DNA of 64,000 nucleotides from Raillietiella orientalis (GCA_036172245.1 JAYWIR010000002.1:3224001-3288000); one strand, 5' to 3'; shown: positions 28,461-61,795, numbered from the stretch's first letter. Notes: a model not told the origin generated them from the letters alone. Numbers and translations are program-made.

Positions 28461-31400
28461 TCTCTTCCACTTCGCTTCATCCCCATCTTTCATCGGGGTC
28501 AGGGCGGTGCCCTGTCCGAGTAGAGACGCTTTCGAGCAGCCGCGTACCTTGGCGCTCTCCTGGTCCCTCGTCTTCTCCTCCCGTCACCTCCGCCTTGCCC
28601 ACGGGAAGGAGGAGGAAGGCCAGCCGGAGGTCTTCCCCCGTCCCTCACGGGAGGAAGGAAGAAAACGGGAGCGTTCGTCCGAGGGCGGGAAGCGAGGACA
28701 AGGAAGGAGACTCCAGGAAGCGCGCTCCATCGCAGCAAGCTACGGGAGGCGCGGACTTCTTTGTCCGGGGCGGAGACGGGCGTCTCCGGAGGAATCCCTC
28801 CCTACTCCCCTTCTTCCTCCCCTCCTTCTCGCTTCTTCTCCTCGGCGGGGAGGCAGTTCCTCGTGAAGGAAAGGGGAGCGAGGCAGGGCGGCGTTCCTGT
28901 GCCTCCGGGACACCCCCGAGTGACCGATGGAGCTGCTGCCCGGAACGGGGCGCGCCGGGTGTGGGACGGGCGAAGACCTCTCTCTGCTTCGTGGGGAGGA
29001 GACGGCGGTGACGGTCCATCTCCCGTAGGCAGCGGTTAGCATGATCAGCGTCTCCCTTTTTGGCGAGCAGGAGATGCCTCCGCGGCTCCTCCTTGCCGGA
29101 ACGGGACGAGCGCCCCCGATTACCTCCGGGAGAAAAAGACCTCCCGGAAACGCGAGGGAGGGATCCGGGACTCCTGATATGCCCTCTGCTTCCTTCTGCT
29201 CTCCGTTCTCCACGAAGTGCCCCTTTTCTCGTATCTGTAGCAAGGGATGCTGCTTTCCTTCTTCCTCCTCTGCTCTCTCCTCCCTCTCTCGCTCTCGCTC
29301 TCCAAGGGAATCATCCGAAATGCAATTAGCGAGAGGTACCGGTGTCAGGAAGAGAGGGGGAGGAGAAGGAGGAGGAGGAGGAGAAGAAAAGAAAAAAAAA
29401 GACCTGACGTGCGGCATCAGCGGTCCTCTCGCCCGCAGCAACGGGGAAAGAAAGAGGAGCATCAATCTTCATGCTTCTTCCGACGTCGCGAGTGAACGGC
29501 GAGAACGGGGTAGGGAAAGGGGAGATCGAGGAGGAGATCGTTCTATAGTTCTTCCCTGGCAACCAGCACATCGTGTCTCCTGCTCTACGGAGACTCTGTC
29601 ATCGTTCGCCCTTTAATTAACTCTTGGATGGTTCCTCTGGAACCCAGGCCGCACGGCGTTCTCCCGGAGCCGAGCTGATCCCCCCCCCCCCTCCTACATC
29701 AAGACGAGATTACGGGGCAGAGGAGGAGGAAGGCCGCCTTCTCTCGCCTTCCCCCCTTCTGCCCCTGCCTCGAGGAGACGGGGGACTCCGAGAAAAATCT
29801 GCGATCGCCCTCTTCGCTTCCGATAGTCCCGATGCTTTCTGGGACGCGCGGGGACTTTCGAGAAAGGACGCGCGGCTCGTTGGTTTCCCCCCTTGCAGCC
29901 AACGCCACCCGGAGATCAGGAGGTGAGCGCTCAAGCGTCGCTCCGGGCGGATCGTCCCGCCGCTGGCGCCCCGGTTGTCGCGCGCGCGCGGAAAGGGTGG
30001 GGGACGGAGGAAAGGGACGTTCCTCTCTGGAGCACTTCCACATCCTCCTCCCGGGATGTGTCGGCCGTCTCGGGAAGAAAGTAGGGTCTGTCTCCAAAAG
30101 GAGGGGGACGTTTCATGAGCCAGGTCGACATCACCACGTGGGGGGTCCGACCTCTGACGGCTCGGATCGCCTCGCTGGTTCGCGGGTCCGCCCTCCTGCA
30201 GGAAAGGAGGCAAAGAAGAAGTGGAAAAAGGAGGGAAGAGCGCACTCTCGGGATGAGAGGGCCACGAAAGAACTTCGGACATTTTGGAAGCCTCGCGCGC
30301 CTCTAGACGCGCGAGGCTCCCGCGCCCGCCGCCTCCGGGAGGAAATGCTCGAAAGCCATCCTCCTCCACGGTCCCAGCGAAGCGAATGAGTCGTCTCCGT
30401 ACTCGTCGTGCGCAGCGTTAAGCCATGGGGGGTCGCAAGCGCACCAAAATCGGTTAGCGTCGGAGGTGCCAATTTTGGCCTCGCCTGTCCGCTCGAAGGC
30501 GCTCGTGTTGTGAGGGTGCGGTTTGGAGGTGGAAGAGGAGGGATGGACAGTGGGGCAATGGGGAAGGAGAGGGTATGGCGTGCGCTTGCACGAGCGCCTT
30601 CCCGTGCCGATGACGCAAGCGCCGCGTGGCGGACGCGCAGCTCCCATGTGGCCTCTGCACACGACGCATTGCTTCCAAGAGGAACGCAGGATTGCAAGTG
30701 CGAGCGAGAGCGTGCGTGTCAGGGCGTTCGTTCCGTTTCCGCCGCCTCGTCTCGCCTTCCTCCCAGTCATAATTTACTCAGGAACGGGTGGTTTGGTTTC
30801 TGGGAGTCGCTATCCGATGGCAAAGCTCCAGGACATCTTCAGGGGAGCAGCCCGCGCTGGAGACGTCATCTAGCAGTGTGGCGCGTTGCAGGATGAGGAG
30901 GATGGATGCGGTTGAGAAGAAACATCCAGAAGCAGCGCTTTGTAATGCGCCACACCACGAACGGTGAGGAACGTGGGAGGACTCCGGGAAACGTTTGTGG
31001 AGACCGCGCTGCTCTTAGTGGGAGCGCAGTGGGAGAGCCGAGGAACCACGGGTGCGATGGTGGCAAGGGAGGAGGGTGGAGGTGAGCGTGAGGAGAACAC
31101 CAGCCTAAATGAAGTGCCCTCCGGTAGTGTGGACGTGCGCGGAGCGCATCGTGCGCTGCTGAAGATGATCCTCAGGGACGCCATCCATCGAACGCCCTGG
31201 TACTCGCCGCACCTGAGATCGGAAGCCAGAAGCAAGCGAAGATTCAGATGCTGAGGCAAACGAAGTCTGCCGCGGTTTTTTCCGAGACGGCTTTCGCCAG
31301 AGGCTGCGTCGCCACTAAGCCGCTCGCTCCGTGCGGAACGGCATGAGGGTGGGCCTTCCATCGGATCTCCGTCTGCCCAGCTCCACGAGGGAGGCTATCA

Positions 31401-39403: not shown

Positions 39404-42400
39404 TCAAAACAGTGGTCTCGGTGCTCCGCGATTGGGGACGCATGCTCTTCGATCTCTTGCTTGTTTGTAGGGAGGTTTCCTCAAATTGCGCAGAGAAACG
39501 CCTCGGGGATGGATGCCCATGCCTGGACTTCCAGCGCTCTGCCAGACAATTGGACGACGAAGGGAAGGGGTTCTCCCTATGGTGCGAAGATTTGACCTAT
39601 CTTCACCAAATAAGTCTCTCTGTTCTTCACCACCTGAAAGTACGTCTGAAAAAAATGCCTTTCGAAATCAAATGCCAACTACCTTGAGATTCTTCTTCTG
39701 TGGGCACCTCAGATGACGCCTGCTGGTCACAGGATTCGGTTTCCGAGCTCTGTTGCAGCTGCTGCTGCTGCTGCATCACGTAAGACGGATTGGGTGTGGA
39801 AGGAACACTACGTCCACTGTTTGCATCTTCTTGCTGGCATATATCACTGCGAGTATCGTGACTTTCAGAGCTGTGCAAGTCTCCCGAGTTCTCTCCAAAA
39901 AGGAAGCGCTGCGTCGGAGTCTGTGGGGAGCTCACAGCTTCAGCAAAGCCATCGTCGCGCCGATTCTGGATAAACAGGGTAGGAGTACTGGGCACCGCAC
40001 GATCATCGATTTCCTCGTATTGCGGCTGACTAGATCCTGTTAATCGAATGCCGTCTGCATGAGATCTTTGCACAGCTGATATCAATTGACGTGAACTGCA
40101 AAGGCTGGGGATTGGGGGTTCCAGATGGGTTGTTTCCGTTGCGGATATCCTGGGGCTTTCTACTTCTGAAATGGCATCACAACGCAGAAAAAAGAATCTT
40201 GCCTGTGACTTCATCGTCCTCATCTTCTGCATTGATCTGCAACTGCGCATCTTCCTTACCACTTTCTATGCTCTCCTCTTCTTCATCCAGATCTTCCCCC
40301 AATTCTCGATCCAAATCATTCTCACTTTCTTCCTCAACATTGCTACTTTCTTCATTTGAGTCATCGTTGTCCTCCTGAGTGATCTAGCACCAGAATTAAT
40401 TACACCATGCAAATAAACAACTTTGAAATTAGATATACCCTCATGTCTTCGTCATCTGTGTCAATGACAATAACATCATCATCATGTTCCTCAGTGTCTA
40501 CTTGAGTCTGGCTGGAAATAGGATCAATTGAATCGACTGTTTTCAATTTTTTGGGTATTGAACATCCGGTGGTTACACTTTCGTCTGTTTCTTCTTCAGT
40601 TCTAGTTCTTTTGGCATCATGAGGTTGGGGAGTAACCAATGCAATTGTTAAGGCAGCTTGGCTTTCATTGTCATCTGCATCTTGAGAGGCAGAAGAAAGT
40701 GGGGTGCACACAGGAATTTCTTCTTCTTTCCAGCGAGGTGCTAACGTAGGTTGTACAGCTGCTTGGGGAATTGATGAAGGACCAGGAAGAGGATCACTAC
40801 TATTCTGTACAATGTACGATACTGAAACATCTGTTATGCTAGGAGACTGCTGGGCAGTTGGCATCACAGTAGCTCTGCGGGACGTTTGCTGAACTGTTTG
40901 AGAAAGAGGTCGGATGCTTGCTGTGGGAGTGGATCGGGAGGGGACCACTATGCACGGTGTAGTGACGTGAGATGGCCTGGTGGCTGGGGAGGCGGGAGTA
41001 GCCATTGGTTTTATGTTTGCTCGAGGGGGAGGTTCCAGAGAACAGTTTGCCACAGTCAACTTTGCTCCCTGTATTTAAGAATCGGAAAGACTCAAAATCC
41101 CTTGGAGTGAATGCTTGTTACCTGTTGATGCTGCTGCTGCTTTTGCAAATTCTCCAGCTGTTTCTGCTGAATAGAAAGCTTTTGCTGCAAGCCATCTAAT
41201 TCTTTCCTCAACTGATCACGCTCGGACCGTATTTCATCATTCTCCATGATTACTTGCTCCCTTTCTTGCAACAGATCGGAACACTCCTTTTCTAAGTGTA
41301 CAATCCGGCTTCCAAAATTTTCTCTTGAATTCTTGACCTGATTAGTATCTGCATCATCGGGGGTGTCGAATGTAGAGAATCGGTTTTCCTGGATCTCTTT
41401 CAAAATCTTCTGTAAACGCTTGTTTTCTAAAGTAAGAGTGTTGCACTTGGAAGTGAGCTCCTGGATGCGATGCCGTGCATTCTGGAAGATCCTCCTCTTG
41501 CGATCTTCTTTTTCCCCTTCGCCGTTTACACCTGGAGAGCAAGTCTCATTACGCAGTTCGTCGTTCTCTGATTTCAAACGGATATTTTCGCTTTCTATTT
41601 GCTGAAACTATAAATGCGCTGCATTACGTGAAACAATATGACTCCTTTTACCTCCTGCAAAATTTCCTCCAGACGGGATTCTGTGGCTTTTAGTTTGGTT
41701 GCAACATCAATCTCTAAATGCTGCACTGCAGAAACTTTCGAAGATGTTGACTCACCGGCAAGAATTCTTTCGGATTCATTTGATGCAACTTTTCCTTCCT
41801 CAGTATGAGCTCCATCGTCAAAGTCATTCGTATGCAGCTGCTCTTTCAAATTAGCATGTAGGGAGTCCAGTTCATCATATTTGGCCTGTAATTGTTCATA
41901 CTGGCTCTTATACTTGCGGCCAATATTTTTAACTTGACGTACGTTCTTCTGCAGTTCAAGAATTTCATACTCTTTTTGCTGCAACAATTCCGTTTTTAAC
42001 TCAATCACATGATTGAGATCACTAATTTTTCTTTGTTCTTCTTCTAGTTTGCTAATCGTACTTTTCAGGTGCTCAATTTCTGCTTGCTTGGCATTCAGTT
42101 CTCTCAGCAGTTGCTGCTGCTGTTCCAAGTTGCGTTTCTTAACATCTTCGGTGGATTGGATGTTTTGATGTTTCAACTTCTGCATCTCTTGCTGCAAAGA
42201 CTTGTGCTCCTCCTGGAGATGCTGATGTTCATCATTTAATTGCTTCTGCTCATTTTGCATACGAGTATTCACTTCTTGCATACGCTTGTGTTCTTCCTGG
42301 AAATCGTTTATTTCAGTTTCCAACCGTGCTACTTCTTTCTCGTATGTTCTGCATTCTTCTTGAAGATGTTGCATCTGCGTTTCAAGATTTGTCTTCTCTT

Positions 42401-45400
42401 GGATGACTTTTTGAAGCTCTTCTTCAGCCTGCAACTTCTTGCCTGCTTGTTCGACTAGCTGCTGTGATCTCTGTTGCCAACGCAAAATTTCACTTTTTAG
42501 AATTTCATTTTCTGTTTCCAAAACTTCGATTTGGGCCGTTTGCTCTCCTAATTGACGCTCTATGGGTTCAAGTTTTCCCTCCATCTCCTTGATTTTCTGT
42601 TCTCCGATCTGGACCTGTTTCTGAAATTGGTCGCGTTCCTCACGCAGCATTCGATTACAGTCGGTGAGAGTGGCCATAAGTTCAACTTTTCGAAGAAGTT
42701 CAGAATGATGTGCAGCTGTTAACGAAGTAACCTGCGTGTCTTCCATTACTTTCTGAAGGGCTTTGTTCGCATCTTCAAGTTTCTTCTGGAGCATCTCATT
42801 TTGAATTTGTAAACGGTTTGCTTCTGCTTGTGATACTTCTAGTTTTGTACGAGCAATATCTTTATCCTTTCGCAGATACTTGATGATTTCCATTAACTGT
42901 TCGGAACTACGATTTGTTTCATCAACTGTCGCAAATTCTGCTGCAGATACAAGTCCACTACTATTCTGCCGTGAGTTCTCATCAGTTGATGAGTCCAAAA
43001 AGGATAATCTGCTATTCATCAATTCCAACTGACTATGCAAAGCTTGATTCTGTAAATCTAAGACTTCAAATCGCTCGTGCAACTCTTGCTGCTCATCCAT
43101 TAACAACTTCTCTCGTGCCATCCAAGCAACTTCTTTACTTTCTAGAGATTCCTCAGCCTTGATTTTCGCTATGTTAGCTTCCTCCAATTGCACATTATAT
43201 CCACTGATCTTTTCCTTTAATTCTGATAAATGCTGCATGTCTGCAGCATGCAACAGCAATTCACGTTCATATTTTTCTTGAGACTCGTGAGACATTTGCA
43301 AATATTTTTGTAGTTGCACACGAGACTCATCCTCCATTGATTCCAACACCTGCAAACGATTTTGTGTAACAATCAGCTTCTGCTGACAACTTTCTAATTG
43401 TTCTTGCAAGTTTCCACTGGACTGCTGCGTCTGCTCACGTAGCTGCTTGATTTCCTCCTCCAAATCATTTCTCTGGTGTTCTATGATTATGAACTTCTCT
43501 TCCAGCAATAAATAATGCTTGTGTTTTTCCTGTAAACTGCTTTCCATCTCTTCCCTCAACAGCTGCATTGCAGTGCTTGTTTCATGCAATTCTTTCTCCA
43601 ATGACTCAGCAATATTTTTATATTGCTGGATGTGTTGCTGAGAGTTGTCAAGTTGACTTGTCAAGGATTCGATGTTAGATTGTGCTTCAGTTAGGCGTGC
43701 TTCCAAATCCTTAATGTGTTCTCGTGTGCTATCGGAAGTCACACCACTCAAGAACTGTTTAGGAGTGAAGTTGTTCAAAGGAGCTTTAACAGTTGCTTCT
43801 TGAAGATCCTGTTGCAATTTCATTACAGCACTCTGAGATTCCTCCAGATCACTATGTGCTTTCTCTAGTAACGCCTTTGTGTTTCTCAGACTGGTCTCCA
43901 GCTCACGATTTTCCTTTTCCCAATTTTGGATTGTGTCCCTAAAGAATTCCTGATTGCTTTCCAACTTCTTCTGCAAAACAGTGTTCTCCTTTTGTAAAGT
44001 TTTTACTTGATCTTCAAGCCTCATTTTACTTTCACTGTCAGCTTTATCCAGATTGTTCTTGATAGCTTCCAGATTTGCTATCAGTAGCGTTTGATTGCGC
44101 TGCTCTCGATGAAGAGATTCGTTTTCCTGGCGCGTTCTTGCTTCTCGTAGCTTGCACATATTTATTTCGTCCTGCAGTGTTTGTGACTGCACTTCCAAAC
44201 GGGTACAACGCTGCTGTAAATTCAACAAGTCATCTTTTAAGTGCGCAATGGTTTCTTCATGACGTCCAACAAGTGTGCTGTATTGTTGTTTCTTATCCTC
44301 AGCAAGAGACAACTGCTGCTTGGTACTCTCCAAACTTCGCAAAGCTGCTTGAAGACGTTCATCATTGTATTCGAGTTTTGCCTCTAGTCTGCATTTATCC
44401 AACCTACATCACTTAGGTCACTGTCTGCTATCCCAAGTTTGCTACTTACTTGACCTGTTCCATTTCATCACGACACTGTTGCAAACTCTCTCTTAACATT
44501 TTCTCATTTTGTGATTTCTCCTTCTGGTAGTTCTCAAACTGTTCCTGCAGCTCTTTCATAGATGCTGATATTTCTGGAAGAGCAGTTGTGGTTGCAGGAG
44601 TTGCTGCAACTGTCGTTACAGTCGGAGATACTGGTATTGTGGAACTGTTGTGAACCAGAGCTTTGTACATATCCCGCTGCTGCACAATACTTTCGACAAT
44701 TTGAGTCTGGCAGTCACGTGTCTTTTTGAGCTCATCTATTTCCTTCCATGCTTGCTCTAAATCTTCCTACAGATTTTGCTACAACTAGGAAACATTTCCT
44801 ACTCTTTACCTTCAATGTCTTTGTTTTATCTGAGAGCATTTCCTTTTCCTGTTGTTCTTTTTCATCAGATAATGCCCTTAACGATATCAGAAGTTGTTGA
44901 TTTTGTTGATGCAATTCCTGAATATCACGGAATGTCACCAGATGTTTGCTGATAACCTAGAAAAATGGCTGCATAACGTGAAAATTGCCACTAAGAGTTT
45001 ATGCTTATATCAAATCGAGAGACGTGTTTACAAATAGTGGAATTTTTTTTGTTTACATGCCAATGATGATATGTGGAGAATAATATGAAGAACATAAAAC
45101 GGTAAATGATAGAAGCACTATGCAACCACTTCACCCACCATGCTATCATATGGCATGATGTGTGAACTGATTGCATAGCATGAAGCAACATAACTGAAAC
45201 AAATGTGAGCTGTACATTAAAGCAATTGCACGTTTCAAACATGAAAAAGGAAATCAACGAATTTCAATAAATTAACGTAAACGAGACTAAGATGCTTTAT
45301 AAGATAATGGGGCTTTTCGAAACAACCATACCTCATTTGCTGTGCTTATTTCCTCACTAGGAGTATCTTCTCCCTCAACTGGAACAGAATTTCCTCGATA

Positions 45401-48400
45401 TTCCTCAATTTGTTTTAGCAGAGTACACACTTGTAGGCTCAAATCTTTAATCTGAAGCTCAAGCCGCTCATTTTCTCTATTTGTTTGAGCAATTTCTCGC
45501 TTAGTTTCATGACCTTCAAATTTGAGATGATCATTTTCTTGCATAGCGGCATTCATCTGAGCAGTCAATGCTTCCAATTTATCAAGACATTCTTCGTATT
45601 CTTCTCTCTGTCTTCTTAACAAAGGTGCTCTCGCAGCTATATCTTGAAAAATACGATCCAGAAATTGCCTTAACTTCTGTGCCTCTGTACGCTCCAAACA
45701 CAACTGCTCCGTTACTTTCATATATTCAGAATAAATCTGCGTTAAACTCATACCAGACCGAAACATTTTGCTTGCAGTTGCTGCTGATGGTGAAATGATT
45801 TCAATGCCTTCTTCTATTAAACCTATAGAACAAGTGTACACAGAACTTAAAAGGACAGCGCTCTTACCTCGCTTTTTAGTAAGTTCCAATAATGTATTTG
45901 CATCTTGAAGCTCCCGGTTCAATTCAGAAATTACCTCATCCTTTTCAGCCAGCTTCTTGTCTTTTTCCTGTACAAGTTGTGTCATTTTGGTTTCCAATTC
46001 TCCATACATTGCAGAAGCTTCTTTTAACAAATGTTTCAATTCCTCATTCGCAGCAGCCAGATCGCAACATTTGGTTTCAGCATCTTCACTAGATTCTTTA
46101 TACAAATCTGCAAGTCGCATTTGGACAGTAAGTTGCTTTTGATAGCTTTCCTCCAAATGGAGCTCGGATTCTCGACTTTCTTTCAATTTTTCTATTAACT
46201 CTTCTTCTCTTTTGCGGAGACTTTCCACTTCCTTTTTCTGCAACTTCAGCTCTGATTCTGTCATTTCGAACTATTAGTAAGAAAAATTAATACAAGTAAA
46301 AGAAGAAAAGGGTCATTACTTCCTCAATTTTCTCAGTCAGCAATAGACGTGTTTCCATGTATCTTCTTGTGTTTTCTCGACTTTGTACAGTAAGCTGATT
46401 TTCTAACTGTGAAATCTGAGAATTAAGAAGATCGATTTTGCTTTGAAGAAGATCTTTTTCTTGCTCTATTCTACATTCCCTGTGGTCAAAAACATCAAAT
46501 GAAATTTACAACTCATTATTCACAACAAATTAACAGTTACTTTTCTTGCAGCTTTGTTTCCCTCTCCAAGATTTCCTCCATCCGCAGTAAAGACTCATAC
46601 TTGTGATTATTGGCAACAAGTAATTCCTTTGATAAGTTATTAATTTGTTCCGTGAGATTATTAATTTCAATATTCTTCCTATCAAGAGCTTCAGCAAATT
46701 CTTGACGTTGAGATGTTAGCAACTGATTTCCTTGTTTTAATGCGTGCATTTCAGCTTCTTCCCTATGAAATCATTACAGTCACATTACATGACGAGGAAA
46801 TTTTAACTGCAGCCTGCAAAGAAAATCTAATTGTTCTTTATCAAGAAAAATAAACGGTGTCCCATGAATTGAATCGTGTTCTTGATTTCGTATCAGGATA
46901 TGACCAAAATATTTCCCTGTATTTGAATATTCGATAATACTTCTATCACTACAACAGATTTGAATCCACGCTCACACAAGTGGCATGCATCTACGTATGT
47001 ACATACACTATCAGTATCATAGCGTACGTAATTCGACGAGTAAAATATTCACTCACGGAATTTAAAGATCCTAGAAGAAATTAAATATTGAAAAGTAGCA
47101 ATCCTAAATATTAGAAGAAATGCTCTTTTTTTTAACCAGTTGGTGTGCTTCCCTTTGCCATTTTGCAGAGAAGTCATTCAGCTAACGGATGTTAAGATAA
47201 AGAGGATGCACAAGTCATTAGGAACAATAAAAGTACTTCGTAGATAAAAAGGAAGAGGAACAACTGGGCAATATCTGGAACCGTAGCAAAATCCCCAAAA
47301 CTTTGGAGAGGCAATGTGCGATGCGAGGAAAGACGAAAACCAATGTCAAGTGCGTTATGCTAGCACCGGTTACGTTGAATTTGAAAATTCCGATAAACGT
47401 CGCTTACCAGGCTTTCGACCTTTCACAAACACCACATTCAGAATTAGGAAACATCGAGTGTGTACGTGCTTGGGTAATGAGAAACCCAACTCTCTGAAAT
47501 ATCGTTCGGTGATTGCTGTTAGCAGAAGGGAAAAAATCGCTGCCAAGTTTAAAGAACGGAAACTAAAATGTGCAACAGAGCAGACCTTTGTGCATAACTC
47601 AAAGGGAGATCTTGAAAAAAAAACTCCAAGATGAGCAATTTAGGAATTCCCACAAAACGACATGTTCTTAACAGTGCCAAAGTGTAGATCAACGTAAAAG
47701 CCCTGAAAAGGCGTTGGTCAATTGCATTTCCCCTAATTACAGCCACAAGAACTATTCGTCTTAGTTTCAAGCAGCTTGTCTCTCACGAAGTTTACCTCCT
47801 TACGATTAAGTTGGGGAAGCCAATGCAACTCATCGATACGAATGCAAAAACTAAGGAGAACACCAAAGTGTACTGTGATCAACGAATGAAAAAAACATAT
47901 ATATCTTATTTGAAAACTAGTTAAAGATCGAAGAATGCCAGGTACTTCATAGCACATACGAGGAGGAACAAAACTTCCACTTCGACAAAAATTCAGATAC
48001 AATCTTAAAATGCAGCTATTGTCAAAAAAAGGAATCACGGATCAAAATTGCCGCAAATAAGGTTTCCTAAAACACAGAAACAAAAACCCTAGTATGATGA
48101 GAATGTAGACACATGGGGGCCAAATCTAAAGGATTCATTTGGTTGGGCGAAATACTGATTAGAGGCCACGCGGAAAAAGCAAACTCTGCAAGATTTCAGC
48201 TATAGCATGCAACGAAGAAAACGACGATAGTTCTGGAAGCTGGAAAAACGAAGCAAAATTCGATACGAACGAGTATGTGTATCCTTACCTTCTCCCAAAA
48301 CGAACTGTCCTGGATCACGTATTCCCTACCTACCCACAAAACTATCCCAAATTTTTGCAAAGCCAAAACAGACCAATGGCACAGAAGTCTCAAAATCATT

Positions 48401-53888: not shown

Positions 53889-55997
53889 GTTTCTAACACA
53901 GCTGCGTACGAAATTCACAAAAACGTATCACTCAATAGTTTTATCGTTTCGTTAGGAAACAAGACTTTAGTATAACCTTGTTTCCATTCAAATATTTTCA
54001 TGTACACTTGAGTGGAAATGACAAAATGGTCGATAATGTACAGCTATATACACGAAATCATACACTTACTTCCTGGGACAAAGGATAAACCGATTTTTTT
54101 TTAGTGACAGGTGTTCATATGTGCAGAAAATGGGTATACTAATTTCGGGAACAGTCCAAATGCATATTCTCGCTTATCAAAACACAGCAGATTCACGACA
54201 GACCCCACGACCGTGGACCAGAGCATACCACACTCTCGTACGCACATTCAAGTCCCTACGATCACGCCCTCACTGGACACTCGGCTAACAATCGAAAACA
54301 GAAGACACTCCTCAGCCCAAGGTATCCCACAGCCCTTTTAATTTAGGGGCTTTCTCTGCACAGACGAAGAGATGCAGACAAAATTTAAAGATACCAATCG
54401 ACGACGTTGGGCATCAAGAAAGGACTTTCTTTTTTCGGTTTTTAGATCAGCTTCCCACGCCTCACTCCTATCTGCTATATTCTTTTATTTATGAAATTTG
54501 CATTCGAATTTTGCAGTAAGTTCTCTATTTCACTAATCTATTGCGATCTATATTTTTAATTGTATTATTTTTAATTATATTTTTAATTTTATGAATAATG
54601 AAATACACTCCATTGTGACTGTCATCTCCTAGCGACATTCGTTGTAATTCTATTATTAGTGTATGAATAATTTTCACTTTTTTCCTGTCCACTATAATGC
54701 TTTTTAATAGGTTTCCAAGGTAGCGTTATAAATCATTCCTTGATGAGCTAAATTTCATGAATATTCAATGTAAAAAAACTCGATTTAGATACATTTTTCA
54801 AATAAACGTTCAGCAATATGTAACTGGTTTCAAAGATGCACACTTAGAATTAGATTGCATCGCGGGCTTCTGCATTCCATAAATTAGTAGGGATATTTGA
54901 ACCCAGCAAGAATTAAATGGGGTTTTATAAAGTATCTGTTAATTTGTAATCTATAGCCTCAAGTACAACAATGAAATTTTCAAGTCCAGAAAAGCAAAAA
55001 TGGAGAAAAATCTCTGTCTAATATGATTTTAGACATATCTCCAATGATGCTTTGCGATTTATGAGCTTGTTCGAAATATCTAAAAGAAACTCATCATAAA
55101 AATCAGAAGAAAAAAAAAAACACGTCATAAATTTTACTAATAAAATGGACTCCTATTCTCATTACAGTGAGTGTGTAATGTTAAAAAAACTAAATTTTGC
55201 ATTCTGCTTCAGGGTTGATTCTAGGATTCTAGGACGCTCGAGGAACATTTGCAAACTATGCTTGAAACATTTCAGAAATGCAGCAAAAAGTGCATAACAG
55301 TGCAAATTTATATATTTTACAAGAATAAAGAATTCATCCCCTAGACTTTTTCCATATTAACTTTTTTCATAAAGACATAAATCAATTAGAACTGTTATAT
55401 ATTGGTGCATTCATAGACTGAAAGCTAAAGAGAAAAAAGTCCAAATCAAACAAGTGTAAGTGATAAAGCCTGAATAAGTAATTCAGGAGGATCACTATCG
55501 GAAATTTAGTAATTTCATTATATATGATGACCACAACACAGTTAAAATAAATGCATTCATCTCACTGTATTTGTTCTTTGTCAAACTATTCGAATTAATT
55601 TCCATGAATTTTGAATTGAATTGAATTTCTTTAAAAAATAAGTGCTGAACCGAAGTCTATGTATGGAAAATCCACTAATAGTTTAATTACAATCTGGTTT
55701 AATACCTTTGTTGTCATGCATTTTTTAAAAAACAGAAATCCATCTCGATAAAGTAATCATTCATGAACAATTTAGAAATCAACTGCAGCAGTGAGGCAAT
55801 AATTATACTAGAAAGTTGCAATCAAAATCAATGCAATAATTTCTTTGATATGTGAAAACTGAGGAGAATAATGAAATCTAAAAATTCATGAAAAACGTAT
55901 CATTTTGATTTTCAGAAGCTAACAGCATTAAAGTATCCCGTCAGAAGATAAGTATGCAAAGATGATTTACGTATTAAAATGAAATATGATTTAATAA

Positions 55998-56013: not shown

Positions 56014-56162
56014 GATTTTCCCCAAGTCCCACAGGGGGTGGGGTGAATTTATTTTCTATAAAAATAGCATTCACACTACAATTTTCATTCACACTCTCAT
56101 TCACGCCACGTTTACCAACACTTGTTCACTTGGATGTCCTGGGTTTCACTCGAGTTCTGCTA

Positions 56163-59100
56163 TCAGGTTGGGGGTCCAGATGTTTGTTCCCGGGCGTCGT
56201 CCTCGATCCTCTTCAGGATGAATCTGTACGTCCAGGCTTGGATTCTTCCGCAGTTCCTGATGCCGATTTCCTTCTTCAGGAGTCCTTGGAGGATCTCCAT
56301 CGGAGGTGCGGCTCTCCTGGCTTTCCTCATCTTCCACCACCGCACAAGTATGGCGGTGATGAAGAGGGCGATGGTCGTCCTCACCATGGGATTGTAACAG
56401 GGAACATTACCATCTCCCTGAAACATCCCGGCGAGGATTTCCATTACGGAGCTGGTGGTGCGTCCGATGATCCTTTTCAGGATCAGCCAGTCGTGAAGCA
56501 GTGTGGGACACGTCAAGATGTGGAGTCTTGTGTCAGTGTCACCACACGCCGTGCAGTCTCTGTCGTCCCTCCTTCCCGTGAAGTGCTGTAGTCTGGACCC
56601 CGTCAGGATTCCTCCATGGTAGAACATCAGGAGGTTGTCCTGGGTGTCCGGCGGAAGGTCACTCCTCCAGAGCGTTGTGCCGATCGCCAACAAGTTGATG
56701 CGATCGCTCCCGTAGCGTTCGGCGGCTTCTTGGAGGGCACTGGTGTCCTTTTCCTCGTCTCTGATCATCTTCCGGAGGTTCATTTTGGTCACCCTCGACC
56801 ACGCGAAGTCGTTGTGGTTAATCCACACCTCGCGGGTCTGGTGGGTGAACCTCCCTAACATCATCTCTATGTACCGGAGTACACGAGAATGATGTAGGTA
56901 TCCTCCTCGGCGCCATTCCTGGATCCGTTGCAGGGTAACTCTGGGCCGCTGGTAGATCCAGCTTCTCGTGTCCGGAGGGACCGGAAGCAACCAGGGGATC
57001 ACCAGGATGGACTCGTCCTGCCAGAGTTCCCTGCTTCTTGGCACGATCTTCATCTTGTGCTTTCGCACAAGCCGCTGTTTTCTTCTCCAGGTAGGGTCGA
57101 TGGTGATCCATTCCCCTGCTCGGCCTAGCAGCGCAGTCATCAGGCCTTTCGAGTTGTTCAGCAACAACGCGTAGGCCCTGTGCGCCGCATACGGCCAGTC
57201 ATCCCAGTGAGTGGCTATGTCCAGGATGTGTCGCGTATCCATGATTTCCATGGAATGTGCAGGCGACTTCATCCCGGAACCGCCTTCTTCCCTGGGACGA
57301 CACAGAGGTTTGAGACAGACTCTTGGGCGATAATGGCCCCACAAAGTTTTCCTCTGCAGCTTTTCTACTTCTCTTGTGGTTTCTTTATTCATTCGTGCGA
57401 AGGCCGCCCCGAAGATTATCTTTGGTAGAAGTACTCCGTTCCACAGGTTGGCTCTTCGCTTCATGTTAAAGTCCACTCGAGTGTACTTCGCTGCTTCGTT
57501 GGCCGTTTTCCCCAGGATTTCCGTCCACAGCAGTTTCGACGCAGAGTCGTCGCCGATGTAGACTCCCGGGTACTTGGCCGTGTCCACCGTACGGAATCCA
57601 CTCCCCGTTAGAGTGGAGAGGTTCAGGATTCCGACGGGCAAAAGCTGGCTCTTTTGGGCATTGATTTTCAAGCCCAGTCCCTGTTCCATGAGGTCGACCA
57701 CATCCCGGAACGCTCGTTGATTCCTCTCTCCCTTGATGAAGAAGAGGAGATCATCTGCGTATGCCAGATGGGTCAGGTGCTGACCATCAATGGAAATCCC
57801 TGATAGACGACCGCTTCTCTCGATGTAAGAAGACAGCGCCTCCATGTATATGACGAACAGCATTGGACTTGGCGAGTCGCCCTGCCGGACTCCTCGTTCC
57901 ATCCTAATTGCTGCCGTCTCTTGGCCGTTGATTTTGATACGGCAGTACTGGTTTTGGAGTACCGCCCTTACGAAGTTGCTGAAGTGTTCCGGAAGCCCAA
58001 GCTTCTCCAGAACCTTCAGCAGCATCCCGTGGTCGATGGAGTCGAAGGCCTTCTCCATGTCGGTGAACGCCAGCACCAGGTTCTCGCCGACGTATCGGCT
58101 GAGACCGACGGTGGCCTGGGCACACTTAACATTGTCAGACATGTGTCGTCCTGGGACTGCACACGTCTGGACCGGAGAGATCAGCCTCGACATGACCCTG
58201 CCTAAGCGGTTGGACCAGATCTTCGCCAACCACTTGGCATCTGAGTTTAGAATCGAGATCGGCCTCCATTGAGCGATCTGCGTGAGATCGCCTCCTTTTG
58301 GCAGCACTCTCATCCTACTCTCGTAGAAGGATTCCGGAAGTCGTCCTTCTTCTCGGATGCAGAGTGTCAACTGGTGGAACAAACGCAGGTAGGCGTGCAG
58401 GTACCGCTGATAGTGCGAGATGGGTACACTATCAGGGCCTGCTGCCACATCCTTGCGAAGCTGCCCAAACGCAGTCTTCACTTCCTCTTCGGAGAAATCC
58501 TCCTCCAGTCTATTTCTTTGGAGGTCGTCCGTCCTTTTCTCGAGGTAACCCAGGAAGGCTTGCTGACTCGAGCGGCAGAGATCTTGTCGTCGGAAGTGTC
58601 TCGCGTAATGCCTGTGAAAGGCTTCCGCGATATCCTCCGACGTGTGCCGCTCTTTGCCGTCGTACTGGATGCAGAAGATATCTGTGGCCAGATTCCTCTT
58701 TTCCAGCACGCCGACCTCCCCTTTCGTGTTCTGGAAGACGTACCGACTCTCGTACTGATCGAAGTGCTTCGAGAGGGAGCGATCTTGGATGTTCAGCTCC
58801 CGGTACGCTTCCTGCCTCATGCGCTTACAGAAGTACTGCATATTGCAGAACAGATGGATTCTGTGCTTCAACCTGTCCCAGTCGGCGACTCTGCGGATGG
58901 TGGTGTCCCGCAGAATCGCCTCGATGACCTCCTGGTGACAGGGAAGCGTTTCGAACCAGGCGGGCATGCAGATGAGCGCCGCCCTGGTGGCCTTTTCCCT
59001 ACGGGGATTTTCAGTGCGGAGTGTAAACCGTACCAATGGGTGATCGGACAACAGGTGTGGAATGTCACGAAAACCCTGGATGCGGTTGTCTATCTCCGCA

Positions 59101-59681
59101 CTGTGGAGGACGTGATCGATCGGTTTGTGGCTAGCTGTTCGCCACAAAAGTCCGAACTCGTCGGACAGCCGCCGATACGCCGCTCTTCCCCTTGCATCCT
59201 GAGAATACTTGATTTCATCAAGGATGTTGAAATCCCCAGCGACGATGACGATGTCCTTCGGTGCCACTCGTTTGCGGAGTTCTTCTTGCAGTTTCTCCGC
59301 GCACCGATGCTTGATCTTGTGCGGTCCGTAGACGTTCACCAGGAAGAGGTGAACGTTACTGGACCAGGACAGTCGCACGCCGATTACTCTGCCCGGTACC
59401 GGACAGAAGGTTTCCAAAATGGTGTGGGCGAGCTCGTTCTTGATGAGGATCGCCACCCCCATGGTCTTCTTCTGTCCCTCGCTGGCGAACAGTTGTCCGT
59501 CGAATCGGCGTTCCATCTCCAGGGCGTTCTGTTGCCCGAGACGGTGGATTTCTTGTAGGCACACCACCTTAAATTTTGCGATGGTCCGCATGATGATCTT
59601 TCTCTTTCCCTGGTCCGTCAGTCCATTCACATTCCAGGAGGCGATGTTAATCCTCCTGGCACTGGACAGCGGCGAGGCCAT
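56163..59681 (-). CDS. LINE ORF2: AP endonuclease + reverse transcriptase + C-terminal CCHC finger (1172 aa, intact)
   Basis: APE motifs SWNVNGL, CLQE, GVAIL, NVYGP, GDFN, IDHVL, SDH; RT motifs GPDS, WRPISILN, DMEKAFD, GVRQGDSPSP, YADD; CTAC...H...C. Confidence 0.97.
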   Translation of the reverse strand: MASPLSSARRINIASWNVNGLTDQGKRKIIMRTIAKFKVVCLQEIHRLGQQNALEMERRFDGQLFASEGQKKTMGVAILIKNELAHTILETFCPVPGRVIGVRLSWSSNVHLFLVNVYGPHKIKHRCAEKLQEELRKRVAPKDIVIVAGDFNILDEIKYSQDARGRAAYRRLSDEFGLLWRTASHKPIDHVLHSAEIDNRIQGFRDIPHLLSDHPLVRFTLRTENPRREKATRAALICMPAWFETLPCHQEVIEAILRDTTIRRVADWDRLKHRIHLFCNMQYFCKRMRQEAYRELNIQDRSLSKHFDQYESRYVFQNTKGEVGVLEKRNLATDIFCIQYDGKERHTSEDIAEAFHRHYARHFRRQDLCRSSQQAFLGYLEKRTDDLQRNRLEEDFSEEEVKTAFGQLRKDVAAGPDSVPISHYQRYLHAYLRLFHQLTLCIREEGRLPESFYESRMRVLPKGGDLTQIAQWRPISILNSDAKWLAKIWSNRLGRVMSRLISPVQTCAVPGRHMSDNVKCAQATVGLSRYVGENLVLAFTDMEKAFDSIDHGMLLKVLEKLGLPEHFSNFVRAVLQNQYCRIKINGQETAAIRMERGVRQGDSPSPMLFVIYMEALSSYIERSGRLSGISIDGQHLTHLAYADDLLFFIKGERNQRAFRDVVDLMEQGLGLKINAQKSQLLPVGILNLSTLTGSGFRTVDTAKYPGVYIGDDSASKLLWTEILGKTANEAAKYTRVDFNMKRRANLWNGVLLPKIIFGAAFARMNKETTREVEKLQRKTLWGHYRPRVCLKPLCRPREEGGSGMKSPAHSMEIMDTRHILDIATHWDDWPYAAHRAYALLLNNSKGLMTALLGRAGEWITIDPTWRRKQRLVRKHKMKIVPRSRELWQDESILVIPWLLPVPPDTRSWIYQRPRVTLQRIQEWRRGGYLHHSRVLRYIEMMLGRFTHQTREVWINHNDFAWSRVTKMNLRKMIRDEEKDTSALQEAAERYGSDRINLLAIGTTLWRSDLPPDTQDNLLMFYHGGILTGSRLQHFTGRRDDRDCTACGDTDTRLHILTCPTLLHDWLILKRIIGRTTSSVMEILAGMFQGDGNVPCYNPMVRTTIALFITAILVRWWKMRKARRAAPPMEILQGLLKKEIGIRNCGRIQAWTYRFILKRIEDDAREQTSGPPT

Positions 59682-59697
59682 GAAAGGGGAGAGAGTC

Positions 59698-60170
59698 CTA
59701 CTTGTTTTTGCGCGCCTTCCTTAACTTCTTCTGCTGGGGAGACTTGTTAAGTTTCCCCGCTGAAGAAGTGGGTTTTTCGCTACCGGCATCGCTCTCGGTG
59801 CCGGTGTGGTCGGTCGACTCGGGATCTTCTCCGGAGCGTTCTGCCTTGGCGATCACCTTGCGCGGGAGGGTCTCCAGGGAGACCGTCGCGCAGTAGACCG
59901 CCTTGACTTCCGAGAGCTGGGCCTCCAGCTTCTCTCGCTCCGGCTCCACAACCATGCGGTTGACTTCGTCTTGAGCCTCGGAGATGCGGGTCAGGAGTTG
60001 CTCCTGTTGCGCCTCTGTCTGGCCTTGACGAACCTCCTCCGCTAGTTTGACCACCTCCTCGGTGAGTTGCAGGGCCTCCTGCGACTCCGGGGTGGGTTCC
60101 GGCATCTTCACCACTTCCTCTGTCACCTCCATCTTCTCGCCTTCCACTGCTGCAACCTCACGAGTAGGGG
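59698..60170 (-). CDS. LINE ORF1 C-terminal part (acidic/coiled coil), out of frame with the N-terminal part
   Basis: ORF 59698-60147 and its upstream open frame; adding one C to the C6 run at 60167-60172 fuses it to ORF1. Confidence 0.7.
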
Positions 60171-61457
60171 GGTTTGTTGCTCCCTCACGAGCATCTTCCT
60201 CTTCCCCTTTTTCCCTATCTCGACGAACCCGTCCGCCGAGACCGGAGCTGCCTCCCTCACCTTCTTCTGTTTGGCTAGCTGAGGTTTGATCACCTCAGCT
60301 AGCACCCTTTCCCTCACGGGGGATTCTCCACGGATTGTCCGGTAGTTAGCAAACTCCGGACAACTCCATTTCGCATGCCCGGGTTGTTTGCAGAACGAGC
60401 AAACTTCGGGCATGGTGCAATTTCGGACCACGTGGCCCATCTTTCCGCACCGGAAACAGCGCGACCTAGGGCACGCGCCCATCCGGTGGCCAAAATTTTT
60501 GCAGCCGGTGCAAAAGATCGGCTGCTGCCTGTATCGAATTGAGACGTCCTGCGACGCCTCGTCGATATGCACGTTACCGGGGATTTGCGCCCCCTCCTTT
60601 AATTTTATCTTGGCGATTAACTCGCCCGAGAAGATGTTTCCGGAGATGTTCTGGGTTTTCATCTCCAGAACCTCTCCGTATTGGGACAGGAAGTCCCACA
60701 CCGTTTGTCTCTCGGTGAGGATGCCAAGGCCATTCACGAAGACGGTCGTGTAAGGCATCTCACCGATGCCTTGCACCATCTTCCCCTGTATATTGATGCC
60801 CTTTTCGATAAGGGCCTCCCGCAGCTCCTCGCAGTCTGTATAAAGGATAAATCCCGCCGAGTTCGGGATTATCGCCTGCAGCCGGTCGAAATCAACATTC
60901 GTCTTATAGAGGGCGCAGTATACCTCCCTCACATTGTTGAACCGGATCAATCCGGTTTTGAAAATTATCGGCTTGGACGCCGGGCTGAGTCGAACCATCG
61001 GCTCCTTCGTTCGAGTGATGATTTCACTCGCCGGTTTGCCGAATGCTCTATTCGGTTGGGCAGAGGCCTGCCCCGCCGTCACCGCCGCATACGAAAACGG
61101 CGGTTTCGCCGCCGCCGCCGAGCAAGATGGCGTCGCACCTTGCCCTGTGTGCGCCGCGTGGACGCCCGCGGCTCCCGCCTGGGACGCCGCCGCCACCGCG
61201 GGCGCAACCCTCGTCGTCGCCGTCGTCGATGTCGCCGTAGGCGGGACCTTCGGCATCGCCGCCGCCGGCACGACCTTCCCCGCCGCGGGCGCGATCCTCG
61301 GCGTCGCCGCCGCGGGCACGACCTCCATCGCCGTCGCCGCGGGCACGACCCTCGGCATCGCCGCCGCAGGCGCAGCAAAGCCTGCCGCGGGCGCGACCCT
61401 CGGCGTCGCCGCTGCCTCCTCGCCACTGCCGCATATTACCTCCATGTGTTCTTCCAT
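60123..61457 (-). CDS. LINE ORF1 (gag-like; Ala-rich repeats, RRM-like region, three CCHC zinc knuckles)
   Basis: CTGCKNFGHRMGAC, CFRCGKMGHVVRNC, CSFCKQPGHAKWSC; TVFVNGL...FLSQYGEV; SYAAVT and DGFVEIGKK motifs. First ATG at 61457; the frame is open upstream to ~61640. Confidence 0.9.
   Translation of the reverse strand: MEEHMEVICGSGEEAAATPRVAPAAGFAAPAAAMPRVVPAATAMEVVPAAATPRIAPAAGKVVPAAAMPKVPPTATSTTATTRVAPAVAAASQAGAAGVHAAHTGQGATPSCSAAAAKPPFSYAAVTAGQASAQPNRAFGKPASEIITRTKEPMVRLSPASKPIIFKTGLIRFNNVREVYCALYKTNVDFDRLQAIIPNSAGFILYTDCEELREALIEKGINIQGKMVQGIGEMPYTTVFVNGLGILTERQTVWDFLSQYGEVLEMKTQNISGNIFSGELIAKIKLKEGAQIPGNVHIDEASQDVSIRYRQQPIFCTGCKNFGHRMGACPRSRCFRCGKMGHVVRNCTMPEVCSFCKQPGHAKWSCPEFANYRTIRGESPVRERVLAEVIKPQLAKQKKVREAAPVSADGFVEIGKKGKRKMLVREQQTPLLVRLQQWKARRWR
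61190..61415 (-). repeat. GC-rich imperfect tandem repeat encoding AAATPRVAP-like units in ORF1
   Basis: Repeated gccgcgggcacgacc / cggcgtcgccgcc units. Confidence 0.7.
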
Positions 61458-61624
61458 GGGGGTCGACGGCTGCTCCACTCCTTGGATGTGCCTCCTTGCG
61501 GCTGCCGTTGCTGCCGCACTTCCCGTTTGGAGGACTTCCACCTCGGGTCCTTCGGCGCTGCTGCTGCTGTCGGGTATTTCCCTCGGTGGCACAGTCACTT
61601 CCACACTAATCTTCGGCAGGCACT

Positions 61625-61764
61625 TGCCCTGTGAGGGCACACAAAAATTGCCGCGGCAGTGGTTTTACGCACTGCCTTGGCGGGGTATTGGGTAAAGTTT
61701 TCAACTAGCAATAATCGCGGCTCAGTCGCCTTCCTCGCCTACGATACTGCCCGTGCGCAAGGCA
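61625..61764 (-). ncRNA. Full-length U4 snRNA-like sequence forming the LINE 5' UTR
   Basis: gccttgcgcacgggcagtatcgtag...gagccgcgattattgctagttgaaaactttacccaataccccgcc...ggcaatttttg...gccctcacagggc follows the metazoan U4 layout: stem II arm, k-turn stem-loop, stem I arm, GAAAACUUU, CCAAUACCCCGCC, central hairpin, Sm site AAUUUUUG, 3' hairpin; ~140 nt. Confidence 0.93.
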
Positions 61765-61795
61765 GGTAGTAGAACTGCTACTACCTAGTTGTGTG

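Follow-up and report, generated by a model that had tools for sequence, protein, structure and literature searches.

How did a complete U4 small nuclear RNA (snRNA) come to stand ahead of a protein-coding retrotransposon? This question is raised by a locus of Raillietiella orientalis, which we have analyzed within a window of 64 kb, the window being the whole stretch of 64,000 nucleotides (GCA_036172245.1 JAYWIR010000002.1:3224001-3288000), with positions counted from its first letter. The minus strand carries, at positions 56014-61795, a 5,782-bp non-long-terminal-repeat retrotransposon, a long interspersed nuclear element (LINE) of L1 type, whose own 5' leader is preceded by a full-length U4 sequence. 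Our answer, which we favor but hold with somewhat less than even confidence, is that the U4 would be a cellular snRNA captured by the element's own machinery, either by template switching or by a prior RNA ligation, and that such capture would have recurred in this LINE family.

A complete U4 snRNA and a coding LINE within one target-site duplication

The insert is bounded by a target-site duplication (TSD) of 16 bp, the same 16-mer being found at 61811-61796 and at 56013-55998 on the minus strand (16/16 identical). This 16-mer is present at just two places in the 64-kb window, both of them ends of the element. From 5' to 3', the insert is composed of a 31-nt leader (61795-61765), the U4 snRNA (61764-61621), a spacer of 163 nt that is the LINE's own 5' untranslated region (UTR) and precedes the ATG of the first open reading frame (ORF) (61620-61458), ORF1 (61457-60123), a displaced ORF of 144 aa (60132-59698), ORF2 (59681-56163), and a 149-nt 3' UTR (56162-56014). 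The U4 has the same sense as the ORFs. Because both U4 and LINE lie inside one perfect pair of 16-bp TSDs, they were integrated in one event.

The DNA into which this copy was inserted is AT-rich and lies outside U4. The insert itself has a G+C content of 56.7%, compared with 32-36% in the DNA around it. Its 3' end does not terminate in a run of A, and the poly(A) tail expected of an L1-type element is therefore lacking; an AATAAA signal is found at 56053-56048, 35-40 nt upstream of the end. The window holds one headed copy (n = 1), and no second copy of ORF1 or ORF2 was found elsewhere in it with blastn and tblastn.

The U4 head and the 5' region

In a cmscan search, positions 61764-61627 (minus strand) matched the Rfam U4 family RF00015 (E = 1.4e-20), and the score of 96.7 bits exceeds the gathering score of 46. 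The match spans the whole covariance model (positions 1-138 of 138), to which both stem-loops, 5' and 3', are aligned together with the Sm site (61649-61642) and the conserved central single-stranded block (61715-61696). The 3' limit of the U4 was put at 61621, since the joint of a contig described below falls at this position.

The 31-nt leader between the TSD and U4 position 1 has no word of at least 11 nt in common with the rest of the window, and its matches of 9 and 10 nt are below chance. The 176-nt 5' end folds with -66.3 kcal/mol (z = -3.3 against 200 shuffles). In the minimum-free-energy fold, the leader forms a 10-bp hairpin and its first nucleotides pair with bases beside the Sm site. 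Not a single ATG is present in the 338-nt 5' region formed by leader, U4, and spacer (61458-61795), while mononucleotide shuffles of this region (n = 20,000) contain 4.1 ATGs on average and 1.2% of them contain none.

An external promoter, as a functional U4 gene would have, is missing from the element, as 31 nt alone separate the TSD from U4 nucleotide 1. In PMC4494074, the proximal sequence element of snRNA promoters is placed about 55-60 bp upstream, and no internal promoter is said to be known for snRNA genes.

This layout agrees in most respects with the initial annotation of the locus, which had proposed a perfect 16-bp TSD, ~31 nt followed by a U4-like RNA, no room inside the element for an external snRNA promoter, and an intact ORF2, all of which we have recovered. 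It had also stated that the U4 runs directly into ORF1. The U4 does lie upstream of ORF1, but the 163 nt of the spacer intervene.

A second piece derived from U4 was observed at 27266-27185 (minus strand), where RF00015 matched with 54.8 bits over the 5' half of the model only. With the LINE head it shares 77-79% identity, and LINE sequence does not adjoin it. Similar words of ~11 nt flank the piece and may represent a TSD; if so, it would be a 3'-truncated U4 retropseudogene. This LINE-less piece suggests that U4 RNA may be reverse-transcribed in the host genome.

Coding regions and LINE type

ORF2 is an open frame of 1172 aa, in which Pfam detected an apurinic/apyrimidinic endonuclease (APE)-type domain (Exo_endo_phos, 3.5e-15) and a reverse transcriptase (RT) (RVT_1, 3.7e-31). 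The catalytic motifs SDH (residue 212) and YADD (residue 641) are in place, as is a C-terminal CCHC motif, CX2CX8HX4C (residue 1043). Among solved structures, the best match was human L1 ORF2p (1.1e-51), with R2 at 5.2e-25. The element thus combines APE and RT in one ORF2, as L1-type LINEs do. A close protein relative of ORF2 was not found: a first search gave 38 matches, the best with 29% identity, a second gave 379, the best with 36% identity over one third of the query, and a third gave 64,168 at E ≤ 0.001, the best at 8.8e-83 with 28% identity. Names obtained for 20 of the 150 proteins listed in the third search belong to an alga, plants, a turtle, and a pseudoscorpion and were uninformative as to the clade. 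Since the closest proteins are 28-36% identical, we have labeled the element L1-type and made no Tx1 assignment. Metagenome contigs gave 45 pattern matches to ORF2, none of which was confirmed, and no match to the 26-nt junction of U4 and spacer; no ORF2 relative was found in viral contigs.

ORF1 encodes 444 aa, with a repetitive N-terminus rich in Ala and Pro and three CCHC zinc knuckles (Pfam zf-CCHC, 3.1e-5). It stops at 60123, and another frame is open at about 60290-59698, so that the two overlap at ~60290-60123; the second frame ends 17 nt ahead of the ORF2 ATG. Given that this second frame continues to just before ORF2, ORF1 is probably broken in this copy by a one-base frameshift, or else it uses a frameshift. 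The 144-aa ORF (60132-59698), which has no Pfam match, would probably be the displaced C-terminal part of ORF1, judging from the overlap of frames. A near-identical contig across 59656-60827, from a sequencing run of the same organism (X1), has one gap relative to the window. The N-terminal part of ORF1 (61226-61415) contains tandem repeats of 27 and 21 nt that encode an Ala/Pro/Val-rich stretch.

The LINE family in reads of the same organism

We have placed contigs of run X1 on the element stretch at 80% likeness. This run contains 0.60 of the sampled words, and 195 of its contigs could be placed, with a likeness of at least 99% in 28, of 95-99% in 28, of 90-95% in 40, and of less than 90% in 99. 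This spread over likeness classes shows that the LINE family is multi-copy and diverged. The summed word depth, which is no copy number, ranged from about 14 to 20 in the bins of ORF1 and from about 45 to 130 in most bins of ORF2. Such a rise from ORF1 to ORF2 is the pattern of 5'-truncated copies, which, together with the 16-bp TSD, is again in line with the L1 type. In the flanks, the two leftmost bins (55400-55867) had no cover and the bins on the right were low. Two further runs (X2 and X3) contained almost none of the words of the element, with pieces of 32-42 nt that were less than 90% alike, and none of the RNA runs among the sequencing runs searched carried element words.

Further U4-LINE joints

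Three joints between U4 and LINE sequence, beyond that of the window copy, were among the joints listed for X1. Each comes from one contig of this single run, and at 80% likeness repeats are a caveat for all of them. The first joint connects, in the sense of the element, the exact 3' end of the family (56014) to 61742, which is U4 nucleotide 23. Three letters are shared at the joint (U4 nucleotides 20-22), the shorter side measures 122 and the depth is 25.9; extra letters may lie between the two parts. In the second joint, 56014 is followed by 19 other letters and then by 61723, U4 nucleotide 42 (side 42, depth 11.8). The third joint leads from 61621, a few nucleotides past the 3' stem-loop of U4, to 61136 inside ORF1, with 484 nt skipped (depth 7.88); with a side of 30, it was rated weak.

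Counting the arrangement in the window, U4 is joined to this LINE family in at least four ways, which makes a one-off accident unlikely: the association of the family with U4 recurs. Three contigs depart from the 3' end of the family at 56017 into sequence other than U4. As a separate observation, a copy with the third joint, which skips 61137-61620, has lost the tandem repeats and the start codon of ORF1.

Origin of the U4 head

The insert is a single retrotransposed member of a LINE family of L1 type that exists in many copies. In the explanation that we tentatively prefer, the RNA that was copied would have consisted of 31 nt and a complete host-type U4 ahead of the LINE's own leader. The U4 would have been captured from the cell and would not be a look-alike evolved by the LINE. 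Capture could have followed either of two routes, one being a template switch of the RT from the 5' end of the LINE RNA to the 3' end of the U4 snRNA, the other a ligation of RNAs preceding reverse transcription. Events of this kind are known from U6/L1 chimeras and have been suggested for the U1 and U2 heads of Tx1-Mar LINEs and of SINEU. Because the head brings no promoter, transcription of the window copy would depend on its surroundings. The anatomy, the TSD, the identity of the U4, the multi-copy diverged family, and the further U4-LINE joints have been observed directly; how U4 and LINE were joined, that the head is a passenger, and whether copies with a head have left progeny are the parts of this explanation that we infer.

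Several findings support such a capture. One TSD pair encloses U4 and LINE, which were integrated together. As in the snRNA/L1 chimeras reported in PMC11838501, the snRNA is complete, lies 5' of the LINE, and is read in sense. The 3' boundary of U4 is fixed while its LINE partners vary (61620 for the window copy and 61136 in X1), and double joints occur, which argues for repeated template jumps; tripartite chimeras arising from double template jumps are described in PMC2104539. The LINE-less U4 fragment at 27266-27185 points in the same direction.

Three observations weigh against it. If the RT had switched to mature, capped U4, nucleotide 1 of U4 should abut the TSD, and 31 unexplained nucleotides precede it. 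The lack of any ATG over 338 nt is a hint of an inherited head, in that the entire region with its U4 would have been retained as an mRNA leader. Finally, both back-going joints among those listed (2/2) fall in the 144-nt U4 and not elsewhere in the 5.8-kb element, which also fits an endonuclease preference for U4 sequence.

This last observation leads to the main rival among the other explanations, which we consider unlikely. The LINE could target U4 genes in the manner of Keno, its endonuclease nicking U4 DNA near nucleotides 19-23. Copies would then reside in U4 genes and be co-transcribed with U4 from the external U4 promoter, and in the window such a co-transcript would have been inserted away from its target. 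The promoter puzzle would thereby disappear. The two contigs with back-going joints set the exact 3' terminus of the family against internal U4 positions, one of them with the 3-nt overlap at U4 nucleotides 20-22, and the joint of 61621 with 61136 would stem from an insertion that was truncated at its 5' end and met U4 at a fixed site. Precise 3' junctions combined with variable 5' junctions are a hallmark of LINEs that target snRNA genes according to PMC4640811, and APE-type Tx1 families that target U2 and U5 snRNA genes and 5S rRNA genes are listed in PMC4494074 (Fig. 3 legend). The window copy, however, lies outside U4; the DNA around it is AT-rich and its 16-bp TSD is of the ordinary kind, and the three contigs that leave the 3' end at 56017 run into non-U4 sequence. 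The site would not be strict, as it is nucleotide 23 in one contig and nucleotide 42 plus filler in the other. Moreover, a simple insertion at nucleotides 22/23 leaves U4 nucleotides 1-22 upstream of the LINE, not the whole U4, for which a target duplication of roughly 120 bp or an already headed RNA would be required. A transcript from the U4 promoter would also start at U4 nucleotide 1 and not 31 nt upstream.

The initial annotation had read the head as a functional mimic of U4 that would recruit Sm proteins, Snu13/Prp31, or U6. In such a reading, the U4 would be an inherited and selected module of the master copies of the family, and the Sm core together with the Snu13 K-turn complex, or pairing with U6, could provide the LINE RNA with a hypermethylated cap, bring it into the nucleus, stabilize it, or shield it from silencing. 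We regard this as improbable. It agrees with the presence of every U4 element scored by the model, at full length and with 96.7 bits, but a recent capture predicts an intact U4 equally and calls for no such function. The 5' region without ATG, its folding better than that of shuffles, and the joining of U4 sequence to the LINE in several X1 arrangements likewise speak for such a module. Against it, snRNA promoters are external (as stated in PMC4494074), so the head cannot hand on its own transcription; the 31 nt before U4 mean that the RNA does not start at U4 nucleotide 1, as an snRNA would; the first nucleotides of the leader are paired with the neighbors of the Sm site in the minimum-free-energy fold; and ORF1 of the window copy looks frameshifted. 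More doubtful again is a specific form of the proposal in which a selected 5' U4 module would provide the LINE mRNA with an Sm ring, the Snu13 K-turn complex, an snRNA-type cap, and import by the small nuclear ribonucleoprotein (snRNP) route, or would titrate U6, and in which the joints at U4 nucleotides 23 and 42 would mark stops of the RT at the ribonucleoprotein.

Least probable of all, and in our view very unlikely, is a single chance chimera or 5' transduction with the X1 joints as duplicated or rearranged remains of one locus, since one copy in the window and joints seen on one contig each in a single run would suit it but three structurally distinct joints beyond the window's own (U4 nucleotide 23, nucleotide 42, and the U4 3' end) speak against it.

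Relation to known systems

The element belongs with the known snRNA-LINE fusions and snRNA-headed LINEs, among which it is one of the rarer forms, and does not represent an entirely new kind. No LINE family headed by U4 or targeting U4 was found in the published articles searched. The novelty is smaller than the initial annotation had claimed, as LINE families with U1 and U2 heads have been published: Kojima 2015 (PMC4494074) names the Tx1-Mar families Tx1-2_Crp, Tx1-2B_Crp, and Tx1-4_AMi with a U1-derived head, and Tx1-11_Crp with a U2-derived one. It discusses template switching, transcription from a flanking promoter, and co-transcription with the target. The present element shares with these families an APE-type coding LINE, a 5' end derived from a polymerase II (Pol II) snRNA, a head with no known internal promoter, and the template switch as a mechanism under discussion. 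Unlike them, it has a U4 head that is complete (model positions 1-138 of 138), its host is not crocodilian, the head is seen here in one window copy, and its ORF2 relatives are 28-36% identical at best.

Chimeras of L1 with U1-U6 snRNAs have been reported, those of U6 being the best known, in PMC11838501, PMC4476161, and PMC6789731. As in these chimeric retrocopies, a full-length snRNA lies in sense 5' of a LINE, one TSD pair encloses both, and LINE machinery is involved. The differences are that the LINE part is full length and coding, with both ORFs and the 163-nt leader, and not 5'-truncated; that 31 extra nucleotides precede the snRNA, whose 5' end does not abut the TSD; that a poly(A) tail is absent; and that joints in the reverse order, the LINE 3' end and then U4, occur. 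According to the literature, L1s of nearly full length that acquire 5' sequence may remain competent.

With Keno (APE-type, Tx1) and Utopia (restriction-like endonuclease), both in U2 genes, and with the Tx1 family that targets U5, the element has in common that the LINE abuts an snRNA at a defined internal position, and, as with Keno and Utopia, reliance on the transcription of a target gene is possible. In contrast to these elements, the window copy lies outside snRNA genes, the whole U4 is upstream of the LINE, and two U4 positions are involved. As of 2015, Kojima and Jurka (PMC4640811) give only Keno and Utopia (U2), Dada-U1, and Dada-U6 as targeting snRNA genes, and U4 is absent from these targets (U2, U1, U6). 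SINEU, the crocodilian short interspersed elements (SINEs) headed by U1 or U2, also combine a Pol II snRNA head with a retroposon and pose the same transcription puzzle. They are short and non-coding, whereas the present element is a coding LINE of 5.8 kb.

Other features of the window

The composition of the window shifts sharply along its length, from ~56-67% G+C with many purine- or pyrimidine-rich tracts in positions 1-36000 to 32-48% in 36000-64000, the LINE excepted. The first 36 kb contain 17 ORFs of at least 250 aa, and none of the five tested matched Pfam. Two open frames on the minus strand, 41595-44408 and 45287-46270, contain domains of nucleoprotein TPR/MLP (PF07926, 2e-16; PF25785, 4.2e-9). 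The best matches of the former are unnamed Logan-derived proteins (30-31%), the named ones being mainly animal TPR (fish, firefly; 26-30%), and in the protein atlas this TPR-like ORF retrieved generic coiled-coil clusters only. Judged by these matches, the host would probably be an animal from a poorly sampled group. Weak matches to microRNA families at 29255-29389 were rejected, as they lie on a GA-rich/TC-rich inverted repeat and the best of them reached 38.7 bits where the gathering score is 96. The repeat is most likely a low-complexity hairpin and not a gene.

Implications

How retroposons headed by an snRNA are transcribed and inherited is an unsolved problem, given that the Pol II promoters of snRNAs are external. 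The published heads are old, degraded, derived from U1 or U2, and crocodilian. With its perfect TSDs, contigs at least 99% alike, complete U4, and intact ORF2, the present copy is young and offers a cleaner case. If the U4-LINE fusions are sporadic chimeras, they would simply be what template switching ordinarily yields, seen here in an animal lineage that has been poorly sampled. If the LINE targets U4 genes, U4 would be added to the short list of snRNA safe havens. If the head is inherited, the element would be the first LINE known to be headed by U4, and would lend itself to asking whether snRNP assembly benefits a retrotransposon.

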